Source: Marsupella aquatica (Eukaryota > Plantae > Marchantiophyta). From it: a stretch of 64,000 nucleotides of DNA. The stretch covers positions 18,634,457 to 18,698,456 of the forward strand of contig OZ316897.1 of the NCBI GenBank assembly GCA_973895155.1. The letters run 5' to 3'. A program made the translations under genes and the position numbers. Positions 13,767 through 63,710 of this stretch are shown piece by piece. The stretch's first letter is position 1. Each line of letters starts with the position of its first letter. The notes beneath the pieces are model-generated. The model saw only the letters and a list, made by a program, of their open reading frames with translations. It made no database searches and had not been told where the DNA came from.

Positions 13767-14129
13767 TGTGACTAGTTTTGGAGGTCCCCGAACAAAGGTT
13801 ACCCGGTGTAAGGTTACCGGTGTGTTATGAGTTTTGGAGATCCCGGAAGAAAGGTTACCATTGTGTGACCATTTTTTGAGGTAATGGAAGAAAGATTACG
13901 AATGTGTAATCATTTTTGGAAGTCCCAGAAGAAAGATTACCATGGTGTGACCATTTTTAGAAGTAATGGAAGAAAGATTACCAATGCATAACCATTTTTG
14001 GAGGTCCCAAAAGAAAGATTACCATTTTGTGACCATTTTTTGAAGTAATGGAAGAAAGATTACCAATGTGTAACCATTTTTGGAGGTCCTAGAAGAAAGA
14101 TTACATGTGCAATTATTTCTGGAGGTCCC
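13767..14129. repeat. Tandem minisatellite, ~40-bp monomers in alternating A/B (~80-bp) higher-order units
   Basis: Alternating ttttggaggtcccagaagaaagattaccattgtgtgacca and tttttgaagtaatggaagaaagattaccaatgtgtaacca-type units, about 9 monomers. Confidence 0.85.
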
Positions 14130-14526: not shown

Positions 14527-14592
14527 ATTAGGGTGTTAATAGTTTAGGGTATAGGGTGTTAGGGTTTAAGGTTTAGGGTGTAGATTTTGGGG
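14527..14592 (+). repeat. Degenerate interstitial telomere-like repeats (TTTAGGG/TTAGGG)
   Basis: ttagggtgttaatagtttagggtatagggtgttagggtttaaggtttagggtg. Confidence 0.5.
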
Positions 14593-27800: not shown

Positions 27801-30800
27801 TGGTGATAGTGGAAGAGTGGAAGACCAGCCCAAGAAGGAATCCACTGACCACTCGTCACCTAATTCTCTTTCCAGTCCAAAAGAACAGGTTGTTGCTGAA
27901 AATGGTGGATTGAAGGGAAAGGATGGGCCCCAGCAACCTGCAAGCGTAGACGAGCAAGCTGAGCGGTTTTACAATTCCCTCTCAGATTTCAACTCTTTCA
28001 TTCTGGAGCACTTGCTTGTGCATTTTTCTATGGAGAAGGTTAACGATCAACATAAGGTGTGGAAGTGGACCAATGCTTGGCAGGGCCAGTGCTTTGTAGG
28101 TGGATTCGATTTCGCCATCACCACCTCTGAAATTGAGTTGCTTGAATCTCTGGTGGCTCCTCTGTCCAGCATTGGAGGGTCGGGGTCTTCTAAATCCACT
28201 GGAGGGGAAGGTGCAGGCTTTGAAGTAACCCAAGAAGTCACTGATGAAACTAACTTTGAGATTCCGGATGGAGCTATAATTGCGATCAAGGATATTTACG
28301 AACACTGCTATCTGGCTGTCGAAGAGATATCCACCAACAAGGGACGCTATCGCTTGGTAGGGGTTCTGCATTACACTTTGGCTGGAGACAAGGCACTCTT
28401 TAAGGTGAAGTATCAGGATCCTCTCAGGAAAAACTCCGACGAGGATGCTTGGTTCTGGCTCTTGTCCGTTCATGCCAAGGGTGCTGATGGGGAGCCTTTC
28501 CGTGTGCACTGCCGCTCCGGGTCTGGTTTGGCTGATATTTCGTCGACAAAGGATGGACCATGGGAGAAATGGAGGTTTCTACCAGCCAAATCGTCGACTG
28601 ACGAAAACAGTGAAGAAGTTGGCGCTCAAAACCCGACCAAGAAGCACTTGTTTCACCTGGTGAATTACAAAAACGGAAGTGGTATTGCTTTTGAGGAAAA
28701 TGTTCCGGTCATAGTAAAGCAACCTGGAAATCCCTTTAAAGTAAAGATTTTTGCCGAGGCCCCAAATCAGAGAGGTGAATCGGAGGAAGATCTTGCGCGA
28801 CCGGAAAAGGTTCAGCAAGAAGTAGTTGGGTTAGTCAACTCTATACCAAGCATTGTCTGCACATTTGACACTTTTATTTTCACAGTGCTGCATGAAGCTG
28901 GTGGTGGCTTACATTTATTGCCGCTGGTGAGGCTTCGAATACCTGGCGGTGAGGGAGTAATGCATATGGGTCTGTCTAAGACAAGGACAATTCTTCAGTG
29001 TGCCATAGTGCTGGAGCATTTTGAATCTCAGAGCAGCCGATGGGTTTCAATTATCAATCCTATTGAAACAGATCTCTTCTATCGGGCCAGAAGCACAAGA
29101 TCTGAGTTAGGAGCTGCGAATAATGACTTGAAGTGCCCAGTGGCCTTCTTCTCAAGATTCAGGAAGGTAGATGTTGTGCTGAGTGAACCCTCCTTGGATG
29201 CGCTCCTCTTCTTGATTGGAGCTTTGGATTTAGCCGGGCCCTTTTCCTTGAAGTCCTCACCAGTGCAAGCAAATCGTTGCTTCGTGAAGAATATGACTGG
29301 GGTAGATGCACTCTGTAGTTTCGATCAAGCTTCGTCCAAAGTTGGTGGGAGGATTCCATCCTGGCATTCCGATGCATTCTTGATGAGGCATATGACTTCA
29401 CGGAGAGATTCGGGACCAGCAAAAGTTGCTTCCTCAGCTGCACTGTATCTCCAAAAGTCAGGCAAGGGGACGACATCACCTGTGATTGTGAGTCTAGGGG
29501 ATCCTGGAGTGTTTGCAATTAAGACTCGCCTCCGGGCTGATGCAGGACAAAACACTACTGGACCCATGGTTGTGGTGGATATTTCCAGGCGAAATGAGCA
29601 AGGGATAGTTGTCTCCGTCTCACCCATGGTCCGCATTCGAAATTCAAGTGGTCTTCCGCTTGAGCTCAGATGTAGACGAGATTCCGCTGGAGAGGAAGGT
29701 GCTGTGGTGGTGCTGGAAGATGGAGATACAATTGATGACTCAATGGCAGCATTTGATGCATTGAACCTTGCCGGGGAACTAAGAAAAGCTCTCGCATCTC
29801 TAAATCTTGGGAACTACTACCTGTCTGTAAGACCTGCTCCCGATTCTTCAATTGAAGGATTTTCTGACATGAGTGGCAAGGATGTCAATTTCGACTGGTC
29901 TGAGGACATCAAGGGAGCAAAGCCTGTGAAATCATCAGGAGCGTTGGACAAGCTTCAGTACAATTTCAGTAACACTGTGAACGCTAACAACCTGAAATCG
30001 TCATTCGGTGTGGTATTTTGCTCGTCAAAACTGAAGTCTTCGAAGGAGTCTTCTGGCCCTGATGATGAGGGAGGCCTGCACTTCTTGGTGAGGACAACTC
30101 GTCGTCAGGTACCCGTCTCCAGACCAAAAAAGGGAACCGAAAATGACCAGCAGCATGGACAGTACTCCATTGTAGCTTGGCAACAACAGCAAGAGCTTCT
30201 TTTGCTCCCGACTGTTCGTTTAATGAATCTTACTACGGCAAACATCTCAGTCCTACTTGTGTCAACATCGGACCGTAGAAAGACAAAAAATCAGGGAGAT
30301 GCCTTTCGGAAAAATGTCCCCATCTCGAGTTTTGGTACAAAATCTATGTATGTGGATCTCGGAGACCTTCTTTTGACTGTGAAGCAGGAGGATCTCAACC
30401 TTATAAGCAGGCCAATTAGTGTGGGAGTGGGGAGTAAGGAATTCTCTAAAAATTCCAAGCTTGGTCGCATAAGAGATGTAGAGATGGAAGTGGATTTTGG
30501 AGATGGTATGCATTCTGCTCTTGCTGATGTAAGACGAGGAGCGGATGGTGTCTTGGAGATCCTCCTCTTGACCAGATACACTTTGCAGAATGATAGTCAT
30601 GCAAACCTGCTCTGCTGTTCAGGAAGGCATCGTTCATCTTGGTGGGGAGGGATGCGAAAGAATCAGGAGCCAGATTGGCCTAGTTCGGGCACTGTGCTCA
30701 CCATAGCACCCAAATCAAAACTGTCATGGTTTGAAAAATCCACCATCGTACTTTTCAAACGAACGGAACCATTAGCAGAAACAGCACTCCTCGATCTTGA

Positions 30801-33519
30801 ATCTGTTTCTGGGTCAATGGAAATTAGTCTACGAGTCCACTGCCCAGACCGTGTGGATAACAGAATTCAACTGGGTGTCCAGCTGAAGGTGCCATCTGCT
30901 GAGGACTCCAACCCCTCGTGTATTATTCTCCTGGTCCCAAGATACGTTGTTGCGAATGACTCAAGTGAGGCAATACTTGTTTGTCAAGATGGATTTCAGG
31001 ACACTAATGCAACGATAACATTGGCACCAGGAGAAAGGTCTGCCTTAAACGCTCAGGAAGTGCCTGGTCAACCCGACAAGAATGGATCAGGGGATGAGGA
31101 AGTGGGACCTGACATTCTTCTCAAAGTGCGTTTCCGTCCTAAGGAATCAGGGTGCAGTTGGTCTGGTCCAGTATGCGCGGCTGCTCTAGGCTCGTTTTCT
31201 GTAAAGATAAAGCGCTTACAACAAGACGAACCTGAGTTTTCATCTCAAAAGCCGCAAACAGAGGAGGTCTTATTTGCAGTGGTAGAGGTACAGGAGAAAG
31301 ATTCATCTTTGATTATGGCCTTCCGGCGACAACCTGGTGATAGGATTCCGTACCTCATTGAAAATGCTCTAAGATCAGCTGCAATCACTTACAACCAAGA
31401 GGGTTTGGAAAACTCCGAATTGCTGGAAACTGGGGCATCTGTGGGTTATGTTTGGGATGACCTTGACAAGCCTCACACTCTGATTGTGAGTCTTGCTGGC
31501 GCTGCTGTGCAAGATCTGATCAATCCAGACAAGCTGAGGAGCTGGAAGCGATTCAGGGCATCCAGAGGGACAACGGGTCTTCTTCAGATACCATTCCTGA
31601 ACGATTTGAGTCGTCTGGCATTGTATGGAGATAGAAATGACGATGATGATGCGCCCACCTCAAAGGGTAATCAGCCACGTATAGGGTATGAAGTTTATGC
31701 CGATGGCCCCACTCGAGTTGTACGTATTTGTGAGGAGAAAGATGCCAGAGTTGAGAGAAACTGGCAGTCTGATGTGTCCAGGCCCAAAATGGAGATTGAC
31801 ATGCGAATACCAATTTTTACTGTAACTATTGCTGAGCCTGGGAAAGGGCCAGAGGAGGCTGAAAAGGAGGAAGGGACCAGTTTTGATACTGTACCATACG
31901 TACCAGTAATTTGTTTAAGGTTGACAAATGTTTTAATTGAAGCAAGGGTCACACCAGAGTACACGTTCTTTCAATTGAAAGATGAGCGGCTGGACGTGGA
32001 TGTGAAGTGGAAGGGAGCTCCAGTAGCTGCAATGCTCAGGGGTCATAATCAAGACCGCTTCGGGACAGGCCACACGATACTTCACACGGCCATAGTTATC
32101 TCCAACCGTGCGAAGAACCCAATACAACTCAAATATGCCTCCGTTTTACTTCAGGCAATCGATGTCAATCTTGACGAGGAGACCTTAATGAAGCTTGTCC
32201 CCTTTTATAGGGTCTCCCTCTCTGAATCGACTGCTCCAAGTCGACAAATATACTTCGAGCGTTTTGAGATTCATCCAATCAAGATTGTTGGGAGCTTTCT
32301 TCCCGGAAGTCCACGTGCGGACTATTCCTCAGGACAGGAAACCCTCCGAGCTCTCTTGCACTCAGTCATCAAGGTCCCAACCGTGCGTGGGGCCACTGTG
32401 GAACTCAATGGGGTGCTTCTCTCAAATGCTCTGCTTACCTTTAAGCAACTGGCCCTCAAGTGTGCTCAGCATTACTCTTGGTACTCGATGCGGGCTATAT
32501 ATATTGCCAGAGGGAGTAAGCTGCTACCTCCGGGATTTGCATCACTCTTTGATGACTCTGCAGCATCATCCTTGGATGTGTTTTTTGATCCGTCAAGTGG
32601 GTCTGTGGATCTGCAAGGTTTGACATTGGGTATGTTCGGGATGCTCAAGAGAGGATTGCGCAAGAAAGGGAAAGGAGGAGGCACTCAGCGTTATTTGGGG
32701 GATCTCCAACATAGCGTGAAGGCAGCAGGGTCCAATATTCTCTTTGCAGCAGTGACGGAGGTGTCAGACAGCGTGGTGAAGGGTGCAGATGCGAATGGAT
32801 TCGATGGTGTGTTGAGTGGCTTCCGGCGTGGCATATTGAATGTTGCAATGAGGCCATCTGTGCTGAGAGGTGCAGTGGTCCAAGGTGGTGCCATCAGAAG
32901 AATCAAGTTGGACCGGATTGTGGGGGCTAATGAGGCATACATTGAGGGCTATTTGCAGGCAACGTTGGATGCCTTGTTCAAGCAAAGTTATGTCAGGGTG
33001 AAGGTAATAGATGACCTGGTCCTTCTAAAAAATCTCCCTCCAAACACCACCTTGATGGAGGAAATGGTACAATGTGTAAGGGACTTCTTGATAGGAGAGG
33101 GGCTTCTTGCAGGAGAGTCTTCACCAGCTGCTCTCAGTGCACTCAGACGGCTTCAAGGAGAAGATAGACGACTGGGGGCTACATTGGTTGCCGTCTGTGA
33201 ACAATTGCTTGTCATAATAGTGGTGCGTTCCCTGCGTCGTCAAACAATAACAGTGCTTCGCAAAAAGAACATCACCTTCATTGGAGGGACCCAGCCAGAG
33301 ATTTATGACTCCGCCCAAACTGACAAGGACAAGGCAAAGGAAGAGCACAAGGAACAGCCACGTCAAGGGTTTTTTGAAGGAATCAACGTGAAGAATGCGC
33401 TGCTTAGCTTTGCCTTTTCGAGTGCACTGGCATATGTAGATGGCAGAATCTGTCGGCACATACCAAATCCTTTGGTTCGCCGTGTAGTTAGTGGATTTTT
33501 ACTCAGCTTTGTTGAGTGA
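21821..33519 (+). CDS. VPS13X: VPS13-family bridge-like lipid transfer protein, plant VPS13X-type (~3585 aa); exons 21821-22110, 22446-22533, 23140-33519
   Basis: N-terminal LRPWL, LDPQ|G; W......A region and Y..LY typical of VPS13; VAB/SHR-BD-like repeats (PRYVVAN, WSGP, PYLIEN, YVWDD...P, DGPTRVVRI); C-terminal IYFERFEIHPIKI and ...YVDGRICRHIPNPLVRRVVSGFLLSF, which I recall as characteristic of Arabidopsis At3g50380-like proteins. Splice phases (2, 0) are consistent. Confidence 0.85.
22205..22382. repeat. ~95-bp diverged tandem duplication in VPS13X intron 1
   Basis: actcac(ac)aaccttg.aat.aacgtctctctg...gcattgataga occurs twice (~22205 and ~22300). Confidence 0.65.
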
Positions 33520-34904: not shown

Positions 34905-35320
34905 TTCATGAATCAAATGTACATTTCTTCTCAATGCTGCGAATCTTTGGGCAGGCTGAAATATACATAGAATTGGGCATTTGTTTTTTGGCACTTTAAA
35001 AATTATACGAAGCATGAATAATGTACATTTTTCACAATTCTGTGTATCTTCGGGCACTTTGAAATATACGAAGAATGGGGCACTTCTTTTTTGGCACTTA
35101 AAAAATATACGAAGCATGTATAATGTACATTTCTTCACAATGCTGTGAATCTTTGGGCAGTTAGAAATATAGGAAGAATTGGGCACTTATTTTTTGGCAC
35201 TTTAAAAACCATAGGAAGCATGAATGAAATGTACATATCTTGTCAATGCTGCATTTCTTTGGGCAGCTTCAAATGTACGAAGCATGAATCAACTGTACAA
35301 TTCTTCTCAGTGCTGCGAAT
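34905..35320. repeat. ~103-bp tandem repeat x~3.5 immediately upstream of ALDH10
   Basis: aatgtacattt...aatgctg.gaatctttgggca...gaattgggcac.t.ttttttggcacttta aaaa..atacgaagcatg recurs at ~34917, 35021, 35122 and 35228. Confidence 0.85.
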
Positions 35321-41294: not shown

Positions 41295-44200
41295 TCATTT
41301 CCCGGGAACTTTGACATAAGAATCCCGCAAAGTAACTGTCCTGTTGAACACCACCGTCTCAGGAGTTGTATCTCTGTCCACGCAATAGTATCCTGGAGCA
41401 GGGCAAAAATACAAAACACACGCAAACACACGAGACACATAAGAATGCGCAGATAGAAACAAAGAGTTGAAGACTGATGAGCAAACAAACCTATCCATTT
41501 AACAACGGTATAAATCACGCAATCACGTATCCACAAGGATACAGCTGATTGAAATGTCAGTATTTACCCAATCGCTCGAATTGGAATTTACTGCCCACCG
41601 ATGCATGCCTCAATGGTGGTACTGCCATTGCGCCCGTAATGGCTTCTTTTGAGTTTGGATTAATGTCACCCAGCCAATCCTCAAGTTCAGCAGGGTTCTG
41701 TTCAGCAGCGTTCAAAGAGAATCAAATCTAGATGCAAATAACCTGTTCTCTTGTAAGCATGAGAAGTAAAAACAATCTGGAGTCCGAATCATAAGAAGAA
41801 TCCAGATAAATTCATTTTCTTCACGAGGACTTGACTGATTCCAAGACTCCATGAGGATCCAAGACGCTTGATTACATTCACCCATGTGAGAGCACAGAAA
41901 CTCTCTCAAATCTGAAGAGCAACCTCAGATCGACCGAGAAAACAGCATAGACTGCAGGTGGAGGACAACAATTACCTCTGATTTAAAGAGCTTATCGAAA
42001 TTTCGGACCTCAACCTTCAAAGGGTCCACCCCAGGCGCTGGTTCTGCCACCCAGTGAATAACCTGCACAATGTTCAGAACACGAGGTCCTGCATATACTT
42101 AGCACTGCCAGGTATATTCTTCCTCAAATAATAAACTACATGAAAATCGTGAACGAACTGTTATTACTAACCTTCGGTTTGGTACTCTTCAAACGATCAT
42201 ATTCAGCATGAACTTCAAGAATTGTTTCTTTGTCTGCTTTGAAAACCACATTTGTACACTTGATCGGATAAGCATATCTGCGAGAAGGAAGGTAACACGA
42301 TGTCAAAACTCAACCTCTGAAACTGCATCTTCAAATCTCAGTAATCACCTACTCTCACAGGAAGTGCAACATGTTCCTGCCAAACTGGACAGGGATAGGG
42401 GAGACACAAACCTTAACATGACACTTTTGTTTGGAGCTAGTCCATAATAATCTTTGGAGTCCTTTAATCGGAAATCGGACTGTTCAATGTACAGAACTCG
42501 GCTGAATGGGATCTGTCAAAATCAGTTTCTTTAAGTCAAAATCCGGGATTAAGCGCTGTTTTAGACTGATTGATCGGCCCAGGATTCAAATTCCAGGCCT
42601 GTGCATGTTGTGAGCATGGTTACTGTGTGACCTGAGTATCGGGTGCTTGTAAGCCCAACAAAAATTGGAAAAACAAAAAAGCAAAAATTGAATTAAACAC
42701 TCTCCGCAGGGAGATAACCCTTACAACTTGAGAAGAGTTATCACACCTTAAATACTTCCCACCCAGCCAATTGATTATTGTTGTGTCCAAAAGAAAACCT
42801 GGCATCGTACCTTGTAAGTTTCTAGTGATCTATCACCTTCCTTCGCTTCTGGCCAGATTTTTGCCTCCAACTCTTCCACAGTGGCTTCATCCATATTTGT
42901 GATTACCACCTTAAACACATTCAAACCACACTTATAGCAACAATAAAATCTGTAAATATGAGGAATCAAATAAGGGAGCAAGTAGAAGTACAACCAGTGG
43001 AAATGAAAAGCTGGGCCCCGAAAACCAGAAATATCATACATGCAAACTCTTTCTATGGATTCAAGGAATCAGTTGCAACTCTACTCATTGTCCTGCCCTT
43101 GCAGTAGCTTCCATACCAAGACTGGATAGAAGGAACCCATACGAGGAAAGGACAGAACAAGAAGAGATTGAAAATTTCTTCTATAAGGAGGCTGTAAGGG
43201 ATTCACACTGCTTCCAAATCGACGAGAGACTTCGCTTATGGTAGCAATGGAAAACACTCATTCCACCTGCCTTACGAACTTGTCATGATGTTTATCTAGA
43301 ATGTCAATAATCCTTAGTTGAGATGGGCACGCAATTCCTTCCAGATCGATGGTTTAGGTAGACTATTTTCGTGTATGAAAACAAATTTTGTCAGTGCCTT
43401 TACCTTCAAAGGTCGGAGAACAACCATAGTCCGCGGTGCATTTTTGTTTAAGTCATCCCTCATGAAATGCTCCAGAAGCTCAGTTCTTATGAGGTTGTCA
43501 CTGTACAGTAGAATACAACTCTGTAAGAATACCCCTCAATGCAGAGATATTCCAATGGAGCCATACCAGCTCTTTTGAATCAACTTCACGCACCAAATGT
43601 TCCTCTTGTTTTCAGATTACCAATCCTTGAACGAAATTAGAACCACGAGAAAGATTCAGCTAAGATCAGTATCAAGTACCTGCGTGTAATGCCGACACCT
43701 CGACAGAAGGCCTGAATTGCTTCAGGAGAAGCACCTCTCCTTCGCAACCCGGCAAGGGTTATAAGACGGGGATCCTCCCATCCATCCACCCAATTCTCTG
43801 TTACGAGTCTGTTTAACTGCCATAACCACATCTTCTTAGCGGATATGCACCATTTGTCACCAACAAACGGAGAGATCATTTTGGTCTCCCTCGCTGAAAA
43901 ACTACGTCACACTTTATTCTTCATGTCTGAAAGCACGATGCCTAGACTCCGGCATTAGAAGCAAAATTGAACGTCATCAGAGTTGGCATATTCAGAAGTA
44001 GTGTCCCTTTATTTTGTACGATCCAAGCATGGGAATTTACAGGAAAACATCCATGATACACACAGTAGCCTGGAACCAAGAACAGTCATTTGTACAGGTC
44101 GCCAACTAGAAGCAGAAGCTACCTTTCGTTTAGACATGACATTGTTTGTCACGTTCAGACGTGAGTACTCCCAAACATATGGCAGATAAAGGTCCAATGC

Positions 44201-47200
44201 CTCTAACAACCAGTAATATGAAGCTCGGCGTGATTCGAACTCTAATGTACAGAGCTGGAACAACGACAATATAACCAGCTCAGTGAACCGGAATGGCCAA
44301 GAATTAAAACCCATGAGAATATTATCGTCGGCTTACACCTAGTAAAGGCTTGCTTTAAAACTATCACAAAATCATCTATAAGATAGCATAAATCCTATTA
44401 GCTTGTTTCAGTCAAAGCAACATAAATCCCTTCATTTACTTAGTGAAGCCCAAAGGCATTCCAAGACAGGCTTTGAATAATTCACTTACAGAGTGGGAGA
44501 TGTTCTCAAGAGAGTCGACGATGCAATGTGTATAGTCATAACTTGGATAAATGCACCATTTGTCACCAACATGTGGGTGTGGGGAAAACTGAAACTCAAC
44601 AATTTCTCGTCAGCTTGATGTTTCATGAAGCGAAAACGCGAAAAATTCCTGTAGCTCAAGTTTCAGAAATGCTGGAAAAATTATGGAGCCTGTCATGTCA
44701 CGTGCAGTTGGAATGTTACAGATTTATGATTTGCAGGGATACCTTGATTCGGTAAGCAATAAGATCATACATATTGAAGTTGTCATTTTTCATGTCTTGT
44801 TTCATCCTCAGTGTGGCCTTCCCTTCATTAATCAGACCTCGCCGCATATCATCAAAGAGCTTCAGTGACTCTTGTATTGGACGATTTCGCCATGGACTAT
44901 CCATTTTCTTCTCTCTGTATTCCTTGATCTCGTCTGCTGTCTGGCAAGGATGCACGAATATATTCTCATGAGGAAATCGTCTCAAACATCTAGCTTGCCA
45001 AACTGGGGTGCAGCTAAATTCATAGCTATCCGACTGCAAGGTTTACTCGACGAAGCCATCAGGTTCCAAAATCTGCAATTCTCACCTGATGATCAACATA
45101 TGCGCGGTCTCGTTTGATCAACTCTACTGCCAGGTCATATAGCTCCTGAAAGTAATCACTACTGTAGGTTACCTGCAGGATGAACCAGAACAGCGACATT
45201 AGCACCTCGCTTATTGGCAGCAAGAGTCCTATTTTTAAATATCTGTGAAAAGTAATTTGAGGCAACAGCGGAAATACAACCTTGTAAGGTTTCCAGCCCA
45301 TCCAACCAATGATCTCTTGGATATGGTCAATATACTCCTTCTTCTCTGCCTCGGGATTTGTGTCATCAAACCTGTCCGATGATATCCAAATTTGACGAAG
45401 TCACGTCAATGTGTACAACACATGCAAAAGTACTCCAAACTAATATTGCGTACACACACACAACTACAGAAAACTCACAGAGACAGAATTCAACTCATTC
45501 CTAGTAGTATTCGGGGAGTGTTATAATATAGGAAGTGTTATGAAGTTATGCCCGTCTAGCCAAGAAAATGTAAAGTGTTCCATCTTTAGATTAGCTTCTT
45601 CTTGCATGTTTGAGAGCGACTTCAAACATATTAGCCATCCGCCCACCTTAAGTAACAATGTCCTCCACTTGCATGGGCAAGACCAAAATCTACAAACATG
45701 GCCTGCCACACCCACGCGGCAAAAACTATGGATGAATAAGTGGTTGATGTCCAACAAAATCCACTGCCAGAAAATAACTATCAGACACTCTTTAAACCCA
45801 AATTCCATCACACACAAATGAGAGATTCACTCTGCAAATTGCACCGAGTAAGACCTTAAAGGCAGGAACTGGAGGGAAAAGTCGACGCACGCCATTTAGA
45901 TCTGGAAACTCTACTTACCAACAGTAAGACCAATCTAACGTACAGAAGGTTTCAAACATTCGGACGGAGCACCAGCAGATCAGACGCCTTTTCTACTTCA
46001 AATTAAAAAGGTATAGTAGAGGGTATACCTTTGCATGCCCAATGTGCAGATAACCATTGGGCTCTGGAGGGAACCGACTGAAAACTTTCCCACCAGTGAA
46101 CTTTAGATGTTTTTCCAGCCTGTCTTTTGAATTATGGGGTCGCCAGATCGGGCCATCACTGAAAAATATCTCCGTGTGTACCTGAACAAATCCAGACCTG
46201 ACGACCCATTGTCACTATCATCTGACTTTGGTCGCACCTTCCCAGTCCAATACAAAGCATAATGAGGGCCTCGGTCAAAAACAATTTGTAACTTATGTTC
46301 CAAAGACTTACCATGTTGTTTTCCTGCGGTTTGGGGAAGATCGAAAATGGATCACTTTCCTCAACTGGTGCGGTTGAAGCAGTATCTCGACCAGATTGGG
46401 TCACCTCCTGTTAAACGAAGACTTAAATTTCAATGCACGAAGTAACTAAGATTGTGACAGGCGAAACGGAGCGTGTTCCCTTCCCAACTGAGAAACAGCA
46501 TGACATGGTACCTCTGCCTTGGGACCTCCCCTTGGCTTCTTTTCCTTTTTCATCTGGAGGGGCTTCTCATCTTCAGCAGTTTTCTCCCCGAGGAGCTCCT
46601 TTAATTGTGCATCCATTTCCTCCTGCACAAAGTCGACTCCATCGACTCAAGACGCACTCATATGAAAACATCCAGATTCTCTTCCTAGTGAAATTTGCAA
46701 TCTCTTCAAGTTTTGGTTACATGAACAGAAAATACTGCTCACAAAGAACATAATACTTTGGACACAGCTTAAGGACAAAACGAGTCATTCTTGACTTCGC
46801 ATGTTACCTTGACGGTTTTACCGTCGGCCCATGGCTCCAACGCACGAACTTGGCCAAGGAGAATACCGACTGCAAAAATAACAAACACATTGGCGACCGT
46901 ATTTCACGCGATTCTCAGACATTTGAAATGGATCCCTTCCTAATCATTAGGGCCCAATATAGAAATCTGGTGAGTGAATAATAAGAAAACTGACATACCA
47001 TTGACACGGTAGCGCTGTTCCTTTATGAGGTCCTTATTTTTAGTTATGACCGACTTGACGGCATCCCTGATCTCCTCTGGAGACACCTCAATACCTGCAA
47101 AAGCAATGTAAAAATTCCCTTAGATTACCTGTCACAATAGTCACTGTTAAGAATCGCAAAGGGTAGGTCCTCCATGAATAGAACAGCCCACTGGGTACGT

Positions 47201-48278
47201 ACCCACTCCACATGCTTTCTCAAGATCTCCCGCAAGGTATGGTTCGGGGCCAACTTTAGAAAGGAAGGTGAAAGCTGCCTCAACCTGTGGTATGGACTTC
47301 ACCTGCACATTAAACCCATTGCTCAAACAATAAATATAGCAATCATCATAGTATATCTTGCACATACTTAAGACAAGTCGAAACAGTAACGCAAATGGAT
47401 ACTTTAAGAAACCAATGTGGCGCACCTTGCCCTCGGCAACATATTTTAGCAGTACAGGACGATGCTTCAGAGCATTGTTTGGAAACTTGGTTGCAACCTG
47501 TTAAAAAATATATATGAATTAGTGACCAAAACAATTCGTCACTCTGGCCATTTACAAAGTCCAAATGAAAGAAGCCAAACGAGCGGCCTTGACGTCGATC
47601 ACGTTAGTAAGGAGAATTACCGAGTACAGCAGGTTCCCTATTGATCTGTCACACCCGTCCTCTAATCCAGCCTGCAATCAACAAACGAGTGGAGCTCAAT
47701 GAGGATTCCGACCTCTAACCCATCTCAACCAAAACCAGGAATCTACATATCTTCACTGACCACAAATTCGCGTGGAACTAAGTATGTGTAATTTGAAACA
47801 AAAACAAGGCAGAGGACGATTCAGTCGGTAAACAATCACAAAAACCCTAAACCCTACATTCCACGGCAACTGGCAGAAGCCGTTGAACTTGACGTAATAA
47901 ACATATGAAATCTCGCGGTGGCGACTGACGTGACGTGACACACTCTAGATTACTGGATTCCGGAAATGATGCAAGGAAAATTGCACCCATTCAAGGCTCT
48001 GAATTTTCGTTAGCAATGCCAATTCCGGATTCCAGAAAGAGAGGCATGGAATAAACAAACAATATAGAAGATTAAGGGAGAAGCGTGCATATCTCCGGGA
48101 AAGAAAATGCTGAAACAAGAATACTAACCTCACTGATGACGGCTGTGAGATTCGCTGTGACTTTGGCATTGGCGACTGCATTTTGGGCAGTCTTCTCGTC
48201 CAGTCCAATCTTCAGAAAGAGCTGCTTCGCGGCCGAATTCTTCAGCTCCTTCTCGCTTTTCTCATCCGGAGCTGGCAT
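41295..48278 (-). CDS. GlnRS: Cytosolic glutaminyl-tRNA synthetase (class I), multi-exon
   Basis: N-terminal [19 protein letters not shown]; [16 protein letters not shown] (HIGH, ~46030-46090); [10 protein letters not shown]; [10 protein letters not shown]; [16 protein letters not shown]; LRMKQDM; [17 protein letters not shown]; LCTLEF; VWEYSRLNV...VMSKRKL; [16 protein letters not shown]; FQFERLGYY; [12 protein letters not shown]...stop at 41295. Confidence 0.96.
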
Positions 48279-50380
48279 GGTCGCTTCTCGCGCGAGCGCG
48301 CGCAGATCAGATTGATTCGGCGTAAGGGCTCACGCACAGCACAAAATCAGAAGCTCAACGATTGAGCGCCACAAAACCTCTCTGAAGGTGAAAACTCAAA
48401 CTCGACCCATTTTCCGTATCGTCTACGATACATTCAGCAGCACACAGAAGTGATATTATCCCAGCTAGAATGTTTACTAGAATAGTATTATCCCAGAAAA
48501 CTGATACTATAACCTTGTCATCCCAGATGTGCCATACTAAAGCAGTAGTATCCCGGATGTACCCAGCCAAAGGGGTTTCAGAGCCCACGAGCAGGAGTGG
48601 GATCGAAGAAATGGATTACAGAAATTCCTGAGAACAGAGGAGCTGCCGCCCAGGAAAGCACTTTTGATGGGTGCCAGTTATCGCAGCAGAGATGGGTCTC
48701 GAAACACGTGATATGTTCGGCCAGATCGAACAAACCATACGGAGTATTAGAAGGTAGTGAGGTTTCGAGGTCCTCCCAACTCAACTCCTACGAAACTGTG
48801 ATCATCGCTGCTCTGGTCACTGCTTCGCCTGAATTCTTCGCCGGCTGTTCGTCTGCAAAATCCCGAAGGTAGACACTACTCCATGATCCAAGACAGAACC
48901 TGCCAATCTCAATTCTCTGTTGACCGAAAACAAGACCCGCTTCGGTGACTTATTTCACTCTTCCAAAATTCTCGTATTCGTTTGCATGTACTCTCTTCAT
49001 ATCACCAGATTAGGACACTGTGTAAACATTTCTATGCTTTGTAAAAGGTGGTATTTCTTGGGTGGGTGGGGTTTCCAGGCTCGTTTGCTTTTGCAGCCCG
49101 GTACCTCAATTTCTCTTTCTCTGTTGTCTACCATTGAACAACGACAGATTACTTCGACCGTGATTTAACACTGGGCAATTGGTTATTGTCCACGTGAGAA
49201 GCCCTTTTTGAGGTGCGTGCATCATTGGTGTCTCCAGATCGAGCTGTGCCCAGACGAGGTAACTGGCTTGGCTGGTACTTCTTGTTCGCATTCAGAATCT
49301 CGGATCTGATGCTGCTGGTCTGGAGAGTTTTGGAAGGACCTGCCAATTGTTGAAACGGAGCATCGCGTGCGTATCTTTCCTGATCTGGACATCCTCGCGT
49401 GTTCTTCGAGCTTTCCAGCTAGCTATGAGCGGGTTTAGAACCTAATGACAATCCATTTGGGACCTAGGCATCCCCGTAGGCCTCCCCTCGGAATGCAACA
49501 TTCTACCTCAAGAAATTACTCAGAAGGAGAGCTTCGAAGGGAAGGAGGTCCTAGACTCTTCAGAGAGTATTACCCTGCCCGTTGGTGATACTACGTAACC
49601 TTAGCAACTACTTCGCCTTACCGACACAGGTGTTGGCTTCCAAGCTTTGTAGATGACAGTCGATTCACGTCCTTAATCTTTTTGAGAACTTCATCTTTTA
49701 CTGGGTCTTTGAGATGTATGTACCAGTCGAACATCTCTGTCCTCGAGCAGAACCTTGTTTTGTTGACAGTGAGCATATACAAACAATATCTTTGGAACAG
49801 TCATGCTTCTAATTAGAAACAAATGAACTTGGTGATCTGAACTCGGTGGTCATCTTTAGAATTAATTACCAGTTGTGGAGAACGTTTCGATGTCGCTTCC
49901 ACATTTCCTTCCATGGTTTTGCAGATTGACATTCATTGACCCCAACAACGATTTTCGAGTACCTTTGGTCAAAGAATGGTTTCCATTGCCTCACACTGTT
50001 GTTACCTTTTGGAGAATGCTATCGATTGCCTGATCTGTTGTGGAGCATCCTCTCCCAGGTCTCCCCGAGCATCTGGATCTTCCGAAATACATAGACATGT
50101 GTCTCAAGTACTGTAATTCTTCTCTCAACTCCTTCCTTTCGGCATTTTGGTGAAATTTTGAGTGGCTTATTCCTTTCTTCTGGATGGCTCCGAAGACCTC
50201 AGATCTGGCATACTATGTGGATTGAATTATGATGTAGCTTGATGTATCAGAAAATCATGATTCCTTTGATAGTTGTTGACTCGTACCCAAGTCCTTTGGC
50301 ACTAGCATTGCACTTACTCGCAAAGCGCATGTCAAATAGAATTACAATGGTCTCTCGTTTTTGGCGTTTGGTTCTGTCAG

Positions 50381-53300
50381 GTAAACGACTCCTTGTACTT
50401 GCTGCACAAACCGAAAGGCACGAGTCCCAGTATACAGATCTTGTTCTTTCATGGTCTCCAATTTGGACAAGATTATTCCAACGCACATGTTTCAACTTGG
50501 GAAAACCATGATGGTTCTTGCATCTGGCCACAAACGTGGTTGGTTGAGGAGTTTCCCAAGGCTCATATGTTAACTGTGTGTTACACTGAAGGTTTGAAAA
50601 AGAGGTCAAATGGAGGCATGGACATGTACAACATAGGAGAAAACCTGGTATCTGATCTTCTGCTGGAGAATATCGGGTCTTCTTGTCCTGTTGTATTGGT
50701 TGGTCACTCCATTGGCGGATTGGTTATCAAGCAGTTGTGTATCCAAGCACATGATATGCTCCACAGCAGCTCCGAGCCTCAGGCAGCCAAGTTGAAGGCC
50801 TTTCTAAAGAGCATCAAGGGGATATTTTATTATTCAACTCCTCATCAAGGAAGCCCCGTTGCAAACAGATTGAAAGATCTCTTTGGAAATTCTCTCTTGA
50901 TGTACTTTGCATCGCTCAGTACGGACACACAAAGACTCAATTCTAAATTTGACAATATATCCAACGTACATTACCACTGGTTGTTTGCTGGACTCGGTGA
51001 AACTCTCTCTACTGATTTGGTACGAAGTTATTTGAATTGAGCTACAAATTGCACGATGTAATATTGTGTATGCGTGGGTTGCATGTCTGGAAGAAATTCG
51101 ATATGTGAGTCTATTGAGTTCGCGTCAGTTACAGTTCACATTTGAACTGTAACAAGTAGAAATCCAACAATGTAACTGAACAATCCAATGTCATGTTAGT
51201 CAAAGTTTGTGAGCATTGCCATCTATTTCGTCTCAGGTGGAAATTCATGTGATACCTTTGCTTGAGTCCCGTATTTATATGATCAAGTTGCGTGAGTTTT
51301 ATCCTGAAACAAAAATGTGGGTATTAACATTATGTACTGGATTCTGTTGTTGATTTGGTTTGCTTCAAAGTGTTCCTAAGAAGTCTACTAGAGACTCTGC
51401 CTGAAAGGGGTCCAGATTTGTACATCTTCAGAATTTGAATTTGACTGTATACTGTGTTGGGCAGGGACCATTTGTGGGCGACGTTGTACCGGAGGCGTCT
51501 GCAAGGGTAGCTGCCAATTTCAATCTTGTGGAGGGAGCGGATCACTTTTCCATTTGTAGACCAAGAAGCAAAATCGTAAGAAACTTCTCGAAACTTCACA
51601 AATTTATCCACGGGATTGCCAATGACTGGAAGGTAGGATGACTGGACCCTTTACAGCTAGTGAAGCAATGCCTTATTCGTATTGATATCGTCAATATAGC
51701 TTGTTCATGTATGAGTCAAATTTGGAACTTAATGTGCTGATATTCAATGTCGCTGAAAACTCAGGAGGATCATGAGAACGCCACTGCCAGTAAGGTAGAA
51801 CGATTGCCGCTGCCATTCCTGAAAGACCCCAAATATGTGGTATTCCAAACAACCACGATCAGAGTTCAAGAAGCTCTGGAGAGTGAAACGACAGGCCCTG
51901 TGGTCACACTCTGTGGAGGACCGGGACAAGGGAAAACAAGCATGGCAAGATATCTGGCTTTGTATTACCAGACCACGTCCATGCGAACTGAATCATCAAA
52001 AGTTGTTCAAAATGAAGAGTTTGCTTGCAAGGATTTGGCTTCCAGTAGATTTGTAGACGGGGTAGTCTTCTTGCCATGCGGTCCGAACATGAATAGCAAA
52101 GACCTCCTATTCAAACTTTGGGAAATTTTGGGCTACCAGCGTCTCCCGTTGATGGGAGTTATGCACGGCCATGCAAGTTCCAGTACTGTGATGGAACAAG
52201 TCTTCGTAACTGAGTCATTACTATCCAATGAGCTCACAAGAAGGCTTTCGACTCAAAAGCTTTTGATTATACTTGATGATGTCTGGGAAGCCGCGCTGGT
52301 AGAGAGGCTATTGTTTCCTGGGCAATGGCTGAGATATTTAATCACTACGCAGATACCACAATTGTGGAATGATGCTAGATGTGAGCAGATCCCGTTGGAT
52401 TGTCCAACTTCACAGGAGGCAAACCAAATTCTCACAAACCATGTATATGGGAGACCCAAAGACATCACGCCACCATTGCAGGTAAGATCCTTATTCATAT
52501 TCAAATTTTGCCTTGCGGTATAGAATGATCGCACTTTTTGTTTGACAGTCACTTCGAGTTAAGTGGATGTTGTTACCCAGAATTTAAAATGGAAGGCAAT
52601 TTCAAGATATGGAGGTAACCTCTGTGAGCATGTGTGTGGCAGGAGGCAATTGATTCAATTGTTGAGAAGGCAGATCGTCACCCTTTGGTGCTTGCCAACA
52701 TGGCTTCAAATATACTTGCAAGTATTCAAGGCAAAGATGTTGATGAATTGGTAGAATGGAAAAACATCGTAGAGTATTTTGATGATCTAATCCAGGATGA
52801 TGCTTCCAGCTCCCCCGTTGTTTTATTTAATCACACATACCCAAAAACCATGAAAGCTTCAATGACATTGGCCTTGAGTTCTCTTTCAGAGCACGCTCAA
52901 ACTCTATTGTTGGTGGCCTCAATATTTGACAGCCAACCAGTTCTAGTTCCTGAAGTGGTATTTAAACTCTTTTTTCGAAGGCTCCATTGTACTTTGGCCA
53001 AGTTTTCGAGATGCTCCAAGCACTTGCAAAACAACAACTTTGTCCAAATCGATAGTAAAGATCTTCCATGGAGTGCCATCCCTGAGAAGACCTGGTCATT
53101 ACATGCTATGCGGCAAACGTTTATCGAGATACTCAAAGGGAGTGAAGTGAAATCAATGGGTGACATGTTTTTGGAATGCAAGACAGAGGAGGACATTCTT
53201 ATTGAATTGCTACTGCTTTACGGGCAAGAGCAATGGCGTGACCAAGCAGCAAACAAATTAGGGGTCCCAAAGAGCATGCAATTAGGTCCCATCAAATCTT

Positions 53301-56300
53301 TCGTCTGGCTCCTCCATGGAGATGCCAGGGAAGAGTGGGAGGAAAAATCACATCAATTGGCTAAGCAGGTAAGTTAGTCTTCATATGTCCTTTGCATTAG
53401 TGCTTTATCTCTGACTTTGATGTCAGTTGGTTAAATTAATCTAGTACTATGTCTTTATTGTACCAAATATACTTTCTCAATTATTGTGATACGCTCCTTG
53501 TGAATTGATATTGGGTTTGGTCTACGGTAATATGCTAAGCTATGGCTTAACTTGTATATCCATATCTTACAATCCCTTTCGAGATTGTCTCAGCCAGTTG
53601 TATGTCTATTTACCTTTGTTGACCTATGGTTATGTTACAATGTTTTGAATCTCCATCCATGTGGTGAAAGTGAAATAATGAGATTGAAGGAGTCAGTCTT
53701 GGTACGTCGATCAGGGGATCTTATGATTTATACATGATGATTGATACGGTGAGCTTCTACAATGTTTCATTCACTAGTTTCTATTGCTTTCTTGGCATAG
53801 TGATGACTCTTTACTTCTTGACCTTCCAGATTCTCCAAAAGTACATATATTGCCATGAGCTTGATGACAACAGCCTCTGTGCATTGTTGAGCACAACAGA
53901 GACAACTTTGCACACATTGGATGCCCTCCGGAAATTTCTCACCTGGAATGTACCTACACTAGTCATTCCCAGAACACTTCATGCTCTTGTGAATCTCCTA
54001 GAACTGACAAACAACAGTCGAGAGCATGTTCTGTTGCCATTGACATTGGTGCTAAGCAACCTTTTCTATCAATATCCTCATCAAAGGATTGAGTTTACTT
54101 CAATTCCACATGCCCTGGACAGACTTCTCATCCTCTTGGCCGCGGATGTAGATGAGCATGTACAACAGTGGGCAATCAATGCATTAGGAAATTTGGCCTT
54201 AGATGGTGGAAATAGGACCAAGATCATCAAGTTTCCAAATGTCATTGGAAGACTTGTCACGCTCTTGGCCGAGGGCACTGCCAAGAATTTACAATCTTCT
54301 GCTGCCTTTGTGTTGGGAAATTTGGCAGCGGATGTTGAAGGCAGGAACAAGATTGTCAAATATCCAAATGTCATTGGGAGACTTGTGGCCCTTTTGGCTG
54401 AGGATGTAGGTGAGGATGTACAAAAATGGGGGGCTTACACATTAGCAAAGTTGGCTATGGATGAGGAAAACAGGATCAAGATCATCAAATATCCAAATGT
54501 CTTTGGGAGACTTGTGGCCCTCTTGGCTGGGGATGTAGTCAAAGATATACAACAGTTGGCAGCTCAGGCATTAGGCAACTTAGCCAAGGATGTTGGAAAT
54601 AGAATTAAGATCATGGAGTTTCCAAATGTGATTGGAAGGCTTGTCGCGCTATTGATCGACGGCACTAGCAAAGAGTTGCTATCATGTGCAGCTTTGGCAT
54701 TAGGGAATTTAGCCCTGGATATTGAAACCCGAATAAAGATTGTTGAATTTCCAAATGTCATTGGCAGACTTGTGGCCCTCTTGGCTGAGGATGTAGGTGA
54801 GGATGTTCAACGATGGGGAGCTTTCACATTAGCAAAGTTGGTTGCGGATGTTGAAAACAGGATCAAGATTGTCGAATTTCCAACTGTCATTGGGAGACTT
54901 GTGGCCCTCTTGGCTGAGGATGTAGGCAAGGATGCTCAACAGTGGGCAGCTCAGGCATTGGGTAACTTAGCCATGGATGTTGAAAACAGAAACAAAATTG
55001 TTGAATGTCCGAGTGTTATTGGAAGACTTGTGGCCCTCTTGGCCGAGGATAGAGACAACAAAGTACAGCTATTTGCAGCTCGGGCGTTAGCCAACTTAGC
55101 CTCTATTGTTGAGAACAGGATCAAGATCATTGAATATCCAAATGTCATTGGGAGACTTGTGGCCCTCTTGGCCAAGGATGTAGGCGAGGATGTACAGCAG
55201 TGGGCGGCTTGTGCATTAGGGAACTTGGCCTTGGATATTGAAAATAGGATCAAAATCATGGAGTTTCCAAATGTCATTGGAAGACTTGTCGCGCTCTTGG
55301 CTGACGATGTAGGCAAGGATGCACAGCAGTGGGGGGCTTTCATGTTAGCACACTTGGTTGTGGATGCTGAAAACATGATCAACATTGCCAAATTTCCAAA
55401 TGTCATTGAGAGACTTGTGGCCCTCTTGGCAGAGGATGTAAGCAAGGATGTACAACAGTGGGCAGCTCTGGCATTAGGTAACTTAGCCTTTGATGTTGAA
55501 ACTAGGATGAAGATTGTTGAATGTCCAAATGTCATTGAGAGACTTGTCGCCCTCTTGGCCGAGGATGTAGGCAAGGATGTACAGCGATGGGGGGCTTTCA
55601 CATTAGCACAATTGCTTGTGAATGCTGAAAACATAAACAAAATTGTCAAATTTCCAAATGTCATTGGAAGACTTGTGGCCCTCTTGGACAGGGATGTAGG
55701 TGAGGATGTTCAACAATGGGCAGCTCTGGCATTAGGCACCTTAGCCTTGGATGTTGAAACCAGGATGAAGATTCTCGAATGCCCAAATGTCATGGGGAGA
55801 CTTGTGGCCCTCTTGGCAGAGGATGTAGGCGAGAATGTACAGCGGTTGTCAGCTCGGGCATTAAGGAATTTAGCCTTAGATATTGAAAACAGGATCATGG
55901 TCATCCAATTCCCACAGCTTATTGGGAGACTTGTGGCTCTGTTTTCCTTGGATGTGAGTGATGGTACAAGAAGTTGTGTAGCAAAAACCTTGCGAATATT
56001 GTCGTTGGAAGTACAGAGTGGGGACTATGAGGGGGCACTTCAGGATTATGAAGACACTCTGGCGGGGATTGATCCAAAAAATGGGGTTCTTTTATGGTAA
56101 AGAAGCTTATCACTTGGTAGAAGTACCATACAATAATTGATTGATGATTAGATCATGGATGAAAATTAGCCTCAAAGCTGATAGATAGGGCTTTCTTGTA
56201 TAGGTGTGATGGAAGTTTTATAAAGCTGATTGATTGATTGTTAGGAGAGAAAGATAGTCACTACATGCAGTACCCTCTAATATCTTTCCCCACAAAATGA

Positions 56301-56729
56301 TGGCCCCGGCAATTTCATTATTTTCTCACAGGATTGGACATGCTGTCTTTGATTTGCAGTAACAGATGTTTTGTGAAAGCAAAGCGTGGAGATTTTGACG
56401 GGGCTCTCACAGATATCAATAAGTTCATTGAACTAGGAGGTGACAGAGTTGTTGGCTTGCAGGAAAGGGGCATTGTGAAACGAATGAAAGGCGACCTGCA
56501 TGGGGCACTCGCAGATTTGAACGAATGCTTAAGCCTGCACCGAGATGACTATGAATGCCTTAAACATCGCGGTTACATCAGGTTCTTGTTGTCGGATGAA
56601 AATGGAGCCCGGGCGGATGCTGAGCGTGCACGCACAGCCAAACCTGGATATGTAGACAACTGTGGGTATGGAAGTGACCTTCTCCTCGGAACAAAGTCAG
56701 TAGAATATCTCGGCTATAACCTAAAATAG
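50381..56729 (+). CDS. NLR-like STAND protein: alpha/beta-hydrolase + NB-ARC + ARM repeat array + TPR; exons 50381-51019, 51465-51632, 51765-52481, 52643-53368, 53830-56096, 56360-56729 (>=1628 aa; first exon not located)
   Basis: Hydrolase motifs ILFFHGL, WPQTWL, VVLVGHSIGGLVIK (GxSxG), YYSTPHQGS, GADHFSICRP. NB-ARC motifs GGPGQGKTS (P-loop), LLIILDDVW (Walker B), YLITTQ (RNBS-B), DRHPLVL (GLPL-like), WSLHA (MHD-like). 43-aa ARM repeats follow, then TPR-like GDYEGALQDY, GDFDGALTDINK, RGIVKRMKGDLHGALADLNECL. The six exons total 4887 nt and are all GT-AG and in frame. Confidence 0.88.
54106..56010 (+). repeat. Coding tandem array of 129-bp (43-aa) ARM repeats, 14 full + 1 partial
   Basis: ccaaatgtcattgg.agacttgtggccctcttggc.gaggatgtagg recurs exactly every 129 bp from 54106 to 55912. 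Confidence 0.95.
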
Positions 56730-61275: not shown

Positions 61276-61871
61276 TTCATAGCACAGTTTAAGACCTGGT
61301 CATTTAATAAGATGAAAATAAAGGTTGGCTGCTAGAATTTCTTTTTCAGTGTGCGGTCCAATACTCTGCCCCTTTTATCTGGGCTTTTTGCCTTAGAAGG
61401 CAGCAATTCACTTCACCGTCGAAAGTACCAAGGTTCCCGAGTTCCTCACTTCTTTTCATCCTGCTGGCTACCCATTGCGCTCAAAGAAGTTAGGGTTATG
61501 TCTTTTAAAGACTTTGCTGGAGACTTTTAAAGTTTTGTTGAAGAAAATAGGGGTGTTTTAATCCAATTTTGAGAATTATAAGAACTATAGGGGATTTTAA
61601 TTCCAAATTTGGGAATAATATTCCATAAAGTTAGGGGTTAAGAAATAGTTAAAACATATCTTATTTTCTTAACTTTTAGGGTGTTTATTACTTGAAAACT
61701 TTGAGTGTGATAGAGGACCTCCTTGGAGTGAGGCCCCTGAGCCAAGGTTCTTTCATGGTGTTCAATGTTCCAAAGTTTTAAAGTATCTCATGAAGTGTTT
61801 TGTTTTTATAGTGCTCTCCCTCATCATAGAAAAAGAGCAAAACTTCTCCATCAAGTGTTATCTGTAAAAGT

Positions 61872-62082
61872 ATATAATCAATATTGAAAGTTACTCTCTG
61901 GGCCTAGTGTTGTGATGTCTATAAAATTATATATTAATCACATAGAAACCTACTCCCTGGGCCTAGTGTTGTGACATCTATAAAAGTATATAATCACAAT
62001 TGAAAGCCACTCCCTGGGCCTAGTGCCGTGATTTCTATAAAATTATAATTACAATTGAAAGCTACTCCCTAGGCCTAGTGTC
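61872..62082. repeat. ~56-bp tandem repeat x4
   Basis: tataatcacaattgaaag.tactccctgggcctagtgttgtga..tctataaaa repeated four times. Confidence 0.85.
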
Positions 62083-63475: not shown

Positions 63476-63710
63476 TTTGCCACCTCTATTTTGTGTCTAC
63501 CCTCACTTTGTCTTTGCCACCCCTATTTTGCGTCCACCCTCACTTTCAGTTTTTGCCTTTGCCACCCCTATTTTGTGCCCACCCTCACTTTCAGTTTGTG
63601 TCTTTGCCACCCCTATTTTGTGTCCACCCTCCCTTTCAGTTGTCCTTATTAAAAGTTGAAGTCAACCTATTTAATGTCCACACTCACTTTCAGTTTTATC
63701 CTTATTAAAA
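63476..63710. repeat. ~33-42-bp minisatellite (tttgccacccctattttgtgtccaccctcactttcagtt) x4 plus a partial copy
   Basis: Directly visible; produces the repetitive spurious ORFs at 63406-63708. Confidence 0.85.

Follow-up and report, generated by a model that had tools for sequence, protein, structure and literature searches.

Several described receptor types share part of the architecture reported here. Rice RLS1, which joins a coiled coil (CC), an NB-ARC domain and ARM repeats (CC-NB-ARM), has a role in cell death and resistance (PMC10030324), and ARM-type NB-ARC proteins are reported to be expanded in Selaginella (PMC10030324, PMC12512272, PMC8559963). The hydrolase domains of two Marchantia NLR proteins provoke responses resembling the hypersensitive response (PMC11218826). 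Some fungal NLRs carry repeats with high internal conservation (HiC), defined as at least 85% identity over 100 amino acids between internal repeats (PMC4986451). NB-ARC-ARM proteins, hydrolase NLRs and HiC-repeat NLRs are each already known. In the liverwort Marsupella aquatica, a single gene joins a hydrolase, an NB-ARC domain, a long regular ARM array and a TPR tail. It lies in a 64,000-nucleotide stretch of contig OZ316897.1 (assembly GCA_973895155.1, positions 18,634,457 to 18,698,456), here called the window. The gene probably encodes an NLR-like receptor in which a predicted groove formed by helix 3 of the ARM units would bind a ligand and the hydrolase would be activated.

Architecture of the gene

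Six GT-AG-spliced exons on the forward strand give an open frame of 1628 codons. A Pfam profile search places an alpha/beta-hydrolase first, followed by NB-ARC, ARM/HEAT repeats and TPR. Introns 1 to 4 of the six-exon model are all in phase 0, and their positions fall at or inside domain borders; the whole ARM exon spans 53830-56096. The splice model is sequence-based: the six runs listed include no RNA, which says nothing about expression.

With a P-loop and Walker B motif in NB-ARC, an N-terminal effector-type domain and C-terminal repeats, the protein has the STAND/NB-ARC layout. Pfam finds no LRR and no TIR domain in the gene; the hydrolase occupies the N-terminus and stands where a coiled coil might otherwise be. 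It retains the GxSxG-type serine and a likely catalytic histidine. Its first exon (Table 1) is 36-40% identical to the hydrolases of proteins P0001, P0054, P0056 and P0057, while the TPR exon is 44-51% identical to the TPR tails of P0003, P0004, P0014, P0015 and P0032. The end of the tentative first exon weakly resembles the N-termini of P0001 and P0054 (tblastn E 5 and 19). A stand-alone ARM gene is ruled out by the NB-ARC and TPR exons, which splice in frame. Microbial origin is ruled out by the introns, the liverwort homologues and an intron-rich glutaminyl-tRNA synthetase neighbour.

The ARM array

Tandem Repeats Finder (TRF) detects a 129-bp array at 54132-55937 with 14.0 copies, 72% matches and a score of 1483. 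Read from 54106, the units are 43 amino acids each (n = 14) and contain no gaps or stops; a degenerate 15th follows, up to 56040. Within each unit, helix 2 occupies columns 1-13, helix 3 columns 17-31 and helix 1 columns 34-41. The array is an ARM solenoid; this is established by Pfam Arm/HEAT matches (Arm E=2e-14), a confident single-sequence structure model of the ARM exon, in which each unit forms three helices (predicted local distance difference test, pLDDT, 78; predicted template-modelling score, pTM, 0.73) and Foldseek matches to the ARM proteins beta-catenin and Vac8 at E 1e-12 or better. The top sequence matches of the array are engineered ARM proteins, Vac8 and importin-alpha. An ARM-only search at near lengths returned four distant matches.

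The initial annotation, made from the sequence, had proposed an array of 129-bp ARM units and listed 14 helix-3 motifs. TRF, the in-frame units, Pfam, the model and Foldseek all bear out the array, and every motif is exact and in the same order. The annotation did not mention that the array is part of a hydrolase-NB-ARC-ARM-TPR gene. Its description of the scaffold as nearly invariant applies to part of the unit. Columns 1-12, in helix 2, have a mean DNA identity of 87.5% (range 72-94%), while the means for helix 3 and for helix 1, the latter containing NRIKI, are 67% and 71% (all for units 2-14); between whole units 1-14, DNA identity is 53-88% and protein identity 42-81%. Four identical tracts of at least 30 bp are shared between units. 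An assembly artefact is ruled out, as the units are too divergent and contigs support them exactly.

Variation at the groove register

Variability is highest at columns 32, 25 and 21, followed by 41. A groove set of columns 18, 21, 22, 25, 28, 29, 32 and 33 was taken from the numbering of designed ARM proteins; it was chosen after the window entropies had been seen and before the arrays of P0001, P0112, P0084 and P0055 were aligned. In the window array the groove set has an entropy of 1.73 bits against 0.92 bits for polar non-groove columns (p=0.004). The corresponding values are 0.79 and 0.15 for P0001 (p=0.017), 2.03 and 0.87 for P0112 (p=0.001), 1.36 and 0.30 for P0084 (p=0.004), and 1.88 and 1.43 for P0055 (p=0.079); these p values are approximate because columns are not independent. 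The comparison used 10 units of P0001, 13 of P0112 and 12 of P0084 (regular-expression anchoring missed some in the latter two), and P0055 without one irregular unit of 17. P0055, from Calypogeia fissa, has 17 ARM units of 44 amino acids and no hydrolase; its most variable column is the usual Asn position.

The variable sites thus lie in the helix-3 groove register, as first proposed, in the window and at p<0.02 in three of the four other arrays. The further proposal that variation sits at fixed helix-3 positions was too narrow: it is concentrated at the groove register, and columns 13, 16, 34 and 41, outside helix 3, also vary. So do columns 23, 26 and 31, which face the core and change together according to repeat type. 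When window units are compared with those of P0001, the groove set is 23% identical and the remaining columns 74%.

In designed ARM binders the pocket is made by helix 3 (PMC10684580, PMC11228518). Columns 25 and 29 of the window array align with the W..N of the conserved paralogues P0014, P0015 and P0032, and are spaced as in WxxxN, the binding motif of importin-alpha (PMC4540411). No unit of the window array has W at column 25.

Repeat history and homogenisation

The units follow the order ABC-ABC-AA-AC-AC-AA by type. A helix-3 tree groups units 3/6/10/12 and units 2/5, with support of 99 and 93, and between-unit identity is slightly highest at offset 3 (0.759 versus 0.72-0.75). A pairwise homoplasy index (PHI)-type test detects recombination among the units (p=0.0005-0.004), though regional rate differences possibly affect it. 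Approximately unbiased (AU) tests among segment trees are biased, each tree having been built from its own segment, and were not leaned on. The unequal crossover suggested at the outset is supported by the whole-unit and block duplications and by this recombination signal.

The best ungapped internal identity over 100 amino acids is 78 in the window array, 100 in P0001, 91 in P0084, 91 in P0112 and 74 in P0055; conserved orthologue sets reach only 45-59. Three-unit higher-order repeats are clear in P0001 and P0112. Since homogenised arrays differ in scaffold, in unit length (43-46 amino acids) and in their branch of the NB-ARC tree, homogenisation is likely to have arisen more than once in the family.

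Relatives and probable exchange of N-terminal modules

The closest protein, P0001 of Calypogeia fissa, shares 73% identity in the NB part, 68% in the helical part, 64% in the ARM repeats and 38% in the hydrolase. A search with its NB-ARC region gave 86 matches. Thirty were looked up: 26 come from Marchantia, Riccia or Calypogeia and two are distant metagenome TPR proteins; none of these 30 is an angiosperm protein by name, and the RLS1 sequence was not in the comparison. Many family members combine NB-ARC with ARM and/or TPR, and most have a shorter, non-hydrolase N-terminus.

A quick NB-ARC tree of 49 rows was built, dropping sequences with no P-loop match or less than 300 amino acids of the region. 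It places the window gene as sister to P0001 (Shimodaira-Hasegawa-like approximate likelihood-ratio test 100) and the hydrolase-bearing members at four separate places inside the family; the hydrolase-NB-LRR proteins P0056 and P0057 fall outside it. The hydrolase tree, of 12 rows, joins P0001 to P0054 (100/99). Forcing the window gene and P0001 into one hydrolase clade is rejected (AU p=8.6e-5); the pair tested came from the NB tree, and a quick hydrolase tree had been seen beforehand. The history of the hydrolase therefore differs from that of NB-ARC. Because the two trees conflict, N-terminal modules are likely to have been exchanged among family members. Phase-0 introns flank the hydrolase module on both sides.

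P0001 and P0054 have sister hydrolases and NB-ARC domains that are not sisters. Both have the nucleophile elbow GHCLGG, with Cys where the window gene, P0056 and P0057 have Ser.

Alternatively, the gene product might bind a host protein as a guard or a regulator, with groove changes tracking the host partner or tuning NB-ARC autoinhibition. RLS1, the sole NB-ARM protein studied, works with the host protein RMC (PMC10030324), and P0014, P0015 and P0032 form single-copy-like orthologue sets across Marchantia, Riccia and Calypogeia. However, the fast turnover in the sub-lineage of the window gene is hard to fit to one conserved partner: the groove residues of P0001 are wholly different, and its hydrolase is another one. 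This role is distinctly unlikely.

Matching contigs in other samples

Six runs were listed, all as contigs, and none of these spans the whole array. Contigs from run X1 contain four listed pieces inside or overlapping the array with zero differences; the matched parts are not assembly artefacts.

A diverged copy of the locus, about 85-95% alike, is present in runs X3 and X4; in it 49653 is joined directly to 54061, so that the hydrolase and NB-ARC exons are missing. One base is lost at each of 55691, 55770 and 56638, and the X3 copy is two units shorter through an in-register joint from 55298 to 55622 (net 258 bp). In X6, one contig begins matching at 54061, the same place. The copy may be an allele, a homoeologue or a paralogue, and it fits birth-and-death turnover. 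X6 has the species label of X3 and X4 and comes from another study; one of its 27 contigs reaches at least 99%, and its listed pieces have 9-35 differences at a depth of about 5, with no neighbour-gene control. X5 contains related units at low share only.

Among the joints listed, 13 with known intervening letters were tested, and ten are whole-unit multiples; by hand, so are two further joints involving unit 15. In six of the ten, the unmatched letters lie inside columns 20-33 and form new helix-3 cassettes that keep the core pattern (assessed by hand). Examples are VSVALTLRVLS (X1), ASACLTLRQL (X3) and GAAAFILG (X4). Since new cassettes are seen at whole-unit joints, further arrays with the same scaffold and other helix-3 cassettes exist in these samples. 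Summed contig depth climbs strongly over scaffold words; this is not a copy number.

Proposed mode of action and alternatives

We infer ligand binding, NB-ARC activation, hydrolase output and an immune role as follows. The predicted helix-3 groove of the ARM solenoid would bind a non-self or perturbed protein; the ligand in the groove would relieve NB-ARC autoinhibition; and NB-ARC activation would switch on the hydrolase, likely triggering defence or cell death. This mechanism is supported by analogy with RLS1 (PMC10030324), with the Marchantia hydrolase domains (PMC11218826) and with the combinatorial domains and variable concave faces of fungal NLRs (PMC4986451). The array probably grew by in-register unequal crossover and conversion, first as a three-unit block and then as two-unit blocks. 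The helix-3 cassettes would diversify under relaxed or weakly positive selection, with helix 2 held uniform. Recognition would most likely involve a composite surface of several repeats, as in fungal NLRs, and not a code of one repeat for one residue.

Selection on the units was examined with codon models. The ratio of nonsynonymous to synonymous change (dN/dS) between pairs of units is 0.35 overall. For the a priori eight-column groove set, omega is 1.22 compared with 0.44 elsewhere (p=9e-7), and relaxed constraint at the groove is clear. On one tree, site model M2a improves on M1a with a likelihood-ratio test (LRT) value of 6.84 (p=0.033), columns 21, 25 and 32 having an omega of about 3.2. 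The helix-3 segment alone also gives p=0.033 with these sites, and they are flagged at omega about 3 in every codon-model fit. Fixed-site tests on columns 21/25/32 (omega 3.3) and 21/22/25/29/32 (omega 2.1) are circular and were not counted. Positive selection at columns 21, 25 and 32 is suggestive only. An excess of nonsynonymous change had been predicted; it is seen at these three columns, and is borderline and dependent on the tree (p 0.02-0.21).

A number of observations count against this receptor reading. Pairwise dN/dS in the groove is 0.38-0.48, the groove-set omega is not above 1 (p=0.34), segment-specific trees give p=0.21, and no-selection simulations on mosaic trees reach an LRT of 6.84 in 8 of 129 cases and 12.18, the value observed in the simulation pipeline, in 2 of 129. 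Groove placement and burial come from the register and not from model coordinates. X3 and X4 contain pieces with zero differences, array pieces included; these exact pieces count against very rapid turnover of those parts. The HiC cut-off of 85 is passed by P0001, P0084 and P0112 and missed by the window array; the analogy with fungal NLRs drawn in the initial annotation fits at the level of the family. Since the cut-off is missed and the longest identical tract is 34 bp, homogenisation of the window array does not appear very recent. Column 29 is Asn in nine of the 14 units (the other five have K, K, H, Q and T), and Asn is missing from all 12 units of P0001. The usual sensor-1 Arg and MHD motif are also absent, with LITTQ and LHA in their place. 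At the position which we take to be sensor-1, TTQ, TSQ or TSE occurs in nine of the ten family members examined; at the presumed MHD position the Asp is mostly missing in the family, where LH or IH is followed by a small or variable residue. Since the sensor-1 Arg and MHD Asp are mostly absent, the switch of the family may be atypical.

In a by-product explanation, the repeats would be alike through duplication, packing would constrain helix 2 and the core, and the concave face would drift with no specific ligand. It is favoured by the groove omega, not different from 1, and by the non-significant M2a test on segment trees. Each repeat type pairs its helix-3 variants with particular core residues, which reflects duplication history, and the truncated, frameshifted copy in other runs indicates that such genes can be dispensable. 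However, in four of five arrays with different scaffolds the polar non-groove columns are far less variable than the groove; ordinary ligand-binding ARM paralogues conserve their groove, as in the W..N ladder of P0014, P0015 and P0032; and the 1628-codon frame is intact. Drift is considered unlikely.

The array does not have the continuous helix-3 WxxxN ladder of peptide-binding ARM proteins, and the conserved helix-3 Asn claimed earlier is found in part of the units. With gaps in the Asn ladder of this array and no such ladder in P0001, canonical extended-peptide reading by the array is doubtful. In a strict modular peptide reader, with the per-repeat code that the initial annotation raised as a possibility, each repeat would bind about two target residues and shuffling would reprogram specificity, as in designed armadillo proteins. 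The gap-free regular units with their uniform scaffold would suit such a reader, as would variation in the pocket helix of designed ARM binders (PMC10684580, PMC11228518), the many distinct helix-3 cassettes in related contigs and the presence of Asn in most window units and throughout the 12 units aligned from P0084. However, the ladder is interrupted every second or third unit and Asn is replaced in P0001 and P0055; unit order tracks block duplication, not free permutation; and in designed proteins one helix 3 is shared between two adjacent pockets, so that modules are not independent (PMC11228518). Such a reader is highly improbable. The broader idea that liverworts possess natural programmable peptide-reading immune receptors, NB-ARC proteins with swappable executioners, homogenised ARM arrays, helix-3 cassettes that specify target residues and shuffling that rewrites specificity, is very unlikely; if true, it would be a protein-reading analogue of the transcription activator-like effector (TALE) and pentatricopeptide repeat (PPR) codes.

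Features of the gene and neighbouring sequences

Table 1. Features of the hydrolase-NB-ARC-ARM-TPR gene, in window positions
Feature	Position	Strand	Evidence
Probable exon 1, tentative; 44 amino acids, phase-0 donor	49976..50107	+	One of three ATG-to-donor candidates
Alpha/beta-hydrolase part 1, nucleophile elbow GHSIGG	50381..51019	+	Pfam DUF676 E=1.4e-4, PGAP1 E=6e-4
Hydrolase part 2, ADHF motif with likely catalytic His; module closes with phase-0 intron	51465..51632	+	
NB-ARC: P-loop GGPGQGKT, Walker B IILDDVW, RNBS-B-like LITTQ	51765..52481	+	Pfam E=4e-8; 73% vs P0001
NB-ARC helical/winged-helix part: RHPLV; WSLHA at MHD position	52643..53368	+	68% vs P0001
Degenerate helical repeats preceding the array, start of ARM exon	53830..54105	+	
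ARM array: 14 full 129-bp units and degenerate 15th	54106..56040	+	TRF, Pfam, model, Foldseek
End of ARM exon, linker to TPR; phase-2 donor at 56097	56041..56096	+	
Last exon: TPR domain and stop	56360..56729	+	Pfam TPR_2 E=3e-6

Other genes occur in the window. The glutaminyl-tRNA synthetase gene (about 44000-48280, reverse strand) is head-to-head with the gene described here, about 1.7 kb from its probable first exon. An uninterrupted open reading frame (ORF) of 3431 amino acids at 23224-33519 (forward strand) has a VPS13 adaptor-binding match at residues ~2530-2731 as its sole domain match; it probably represents one very long exon in a gene of the VPS13 type, which is unusual beside intron-rich neighbours. 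An ORF for a RING-H2 (Rbx1-like) finger lies at 7678-8271 and a subtilase fragment at 242-577, both on the forward strand. Non-coding tandem repeats are found at 13810-14129, 15783-16201, 34907-35286, 61855-62081 and 63507-63641, with periods of 41, 17-18, 103, 57 and 45 bp respectively. Telomere-like TTTAGGG runs occur near 14530 and 62680.

Comparison with known systems

No description of hydrolase-NB-ARC-ARM-TPR proteins was found in the open-access literature searched, although such proteins may be listed in the PMC11218826 and PMC12512272 data sets (as "other" or CC-NB-ARM). Likewise, those searches yielded no description of homogenised, groove-variable plant ARM arrays.

In RLS1-type CC-NB-ARM proteins, as in the window gene, ARM repeats replace LRR after NB-ARC (PMC10030324, PMC12512272, PMC8559963). 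RLS1, of 1040 amino acids, differs in that it starts with a CC and contains three ARM motifs; the window gene combines a hydrolase with 15 regular units and a TPR tail. TNP proteins (TIR-NB-ARC-TPR; PMC12512272) are also non-LRR NB-ARC proteins ending in TPR, whereas the window gene lacks TIR and has a long ARM array. Bryophyte Hyd-NLR/HNL proteins (PMC11218826) have the same type of alpha/beta-hydrolase on NB-ARC, at about 40% identity to P0056 and P0057. In contrast to the window gene, Hyd-NLRs bear LRR, and the NB-ARC domains of P0056 and P0057 lie outside its clade.

Designed ARM repeat proteins and importin-alpha share with the window array a regular solenoid, a constant scaffold and specificity positions in helix 3 (PMC11228518, PMC10684580, PMC4540411). 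They keep the W..N ladder; the window array has no W at column 25 and an incomplete set of Asn. For the design of modular peptide binders, the family is a source of natural ARM scaffolds and pocket variants. As the units are regular and gap-free, repeat swaps can test specificity, and with members in Marchantia and Riccia the family is open to genetics.

Fungal NLRs such as the sesB-like/NB-ARC/TPR protein Pa_2_10340 share the layout of effector, nucleotide-oligomerisation domain and repeats, and they resemble the family in their combinatorial N-terminal domains, internally conserved repeats and variable concave face (PMC4986451). Fungal HiC repeats are WD, ANK or TPR, whereas this family is from plants and uses ARM; the word "armadillo" does not occur in the main text of PMC4986451. 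Allelic repeat-length polymorphism is demonstrated in fungal NLRs (PMC4986451), whereas no contig spans the window array. The family points to a third route in liverworts, with ARM solenoids homogenised several times independently while the groove face varies. Groove-variable ARM solenoids on NB-ARC switches with exchanged N-termini would represent convergence on the way in which fungal NLRs evolve.

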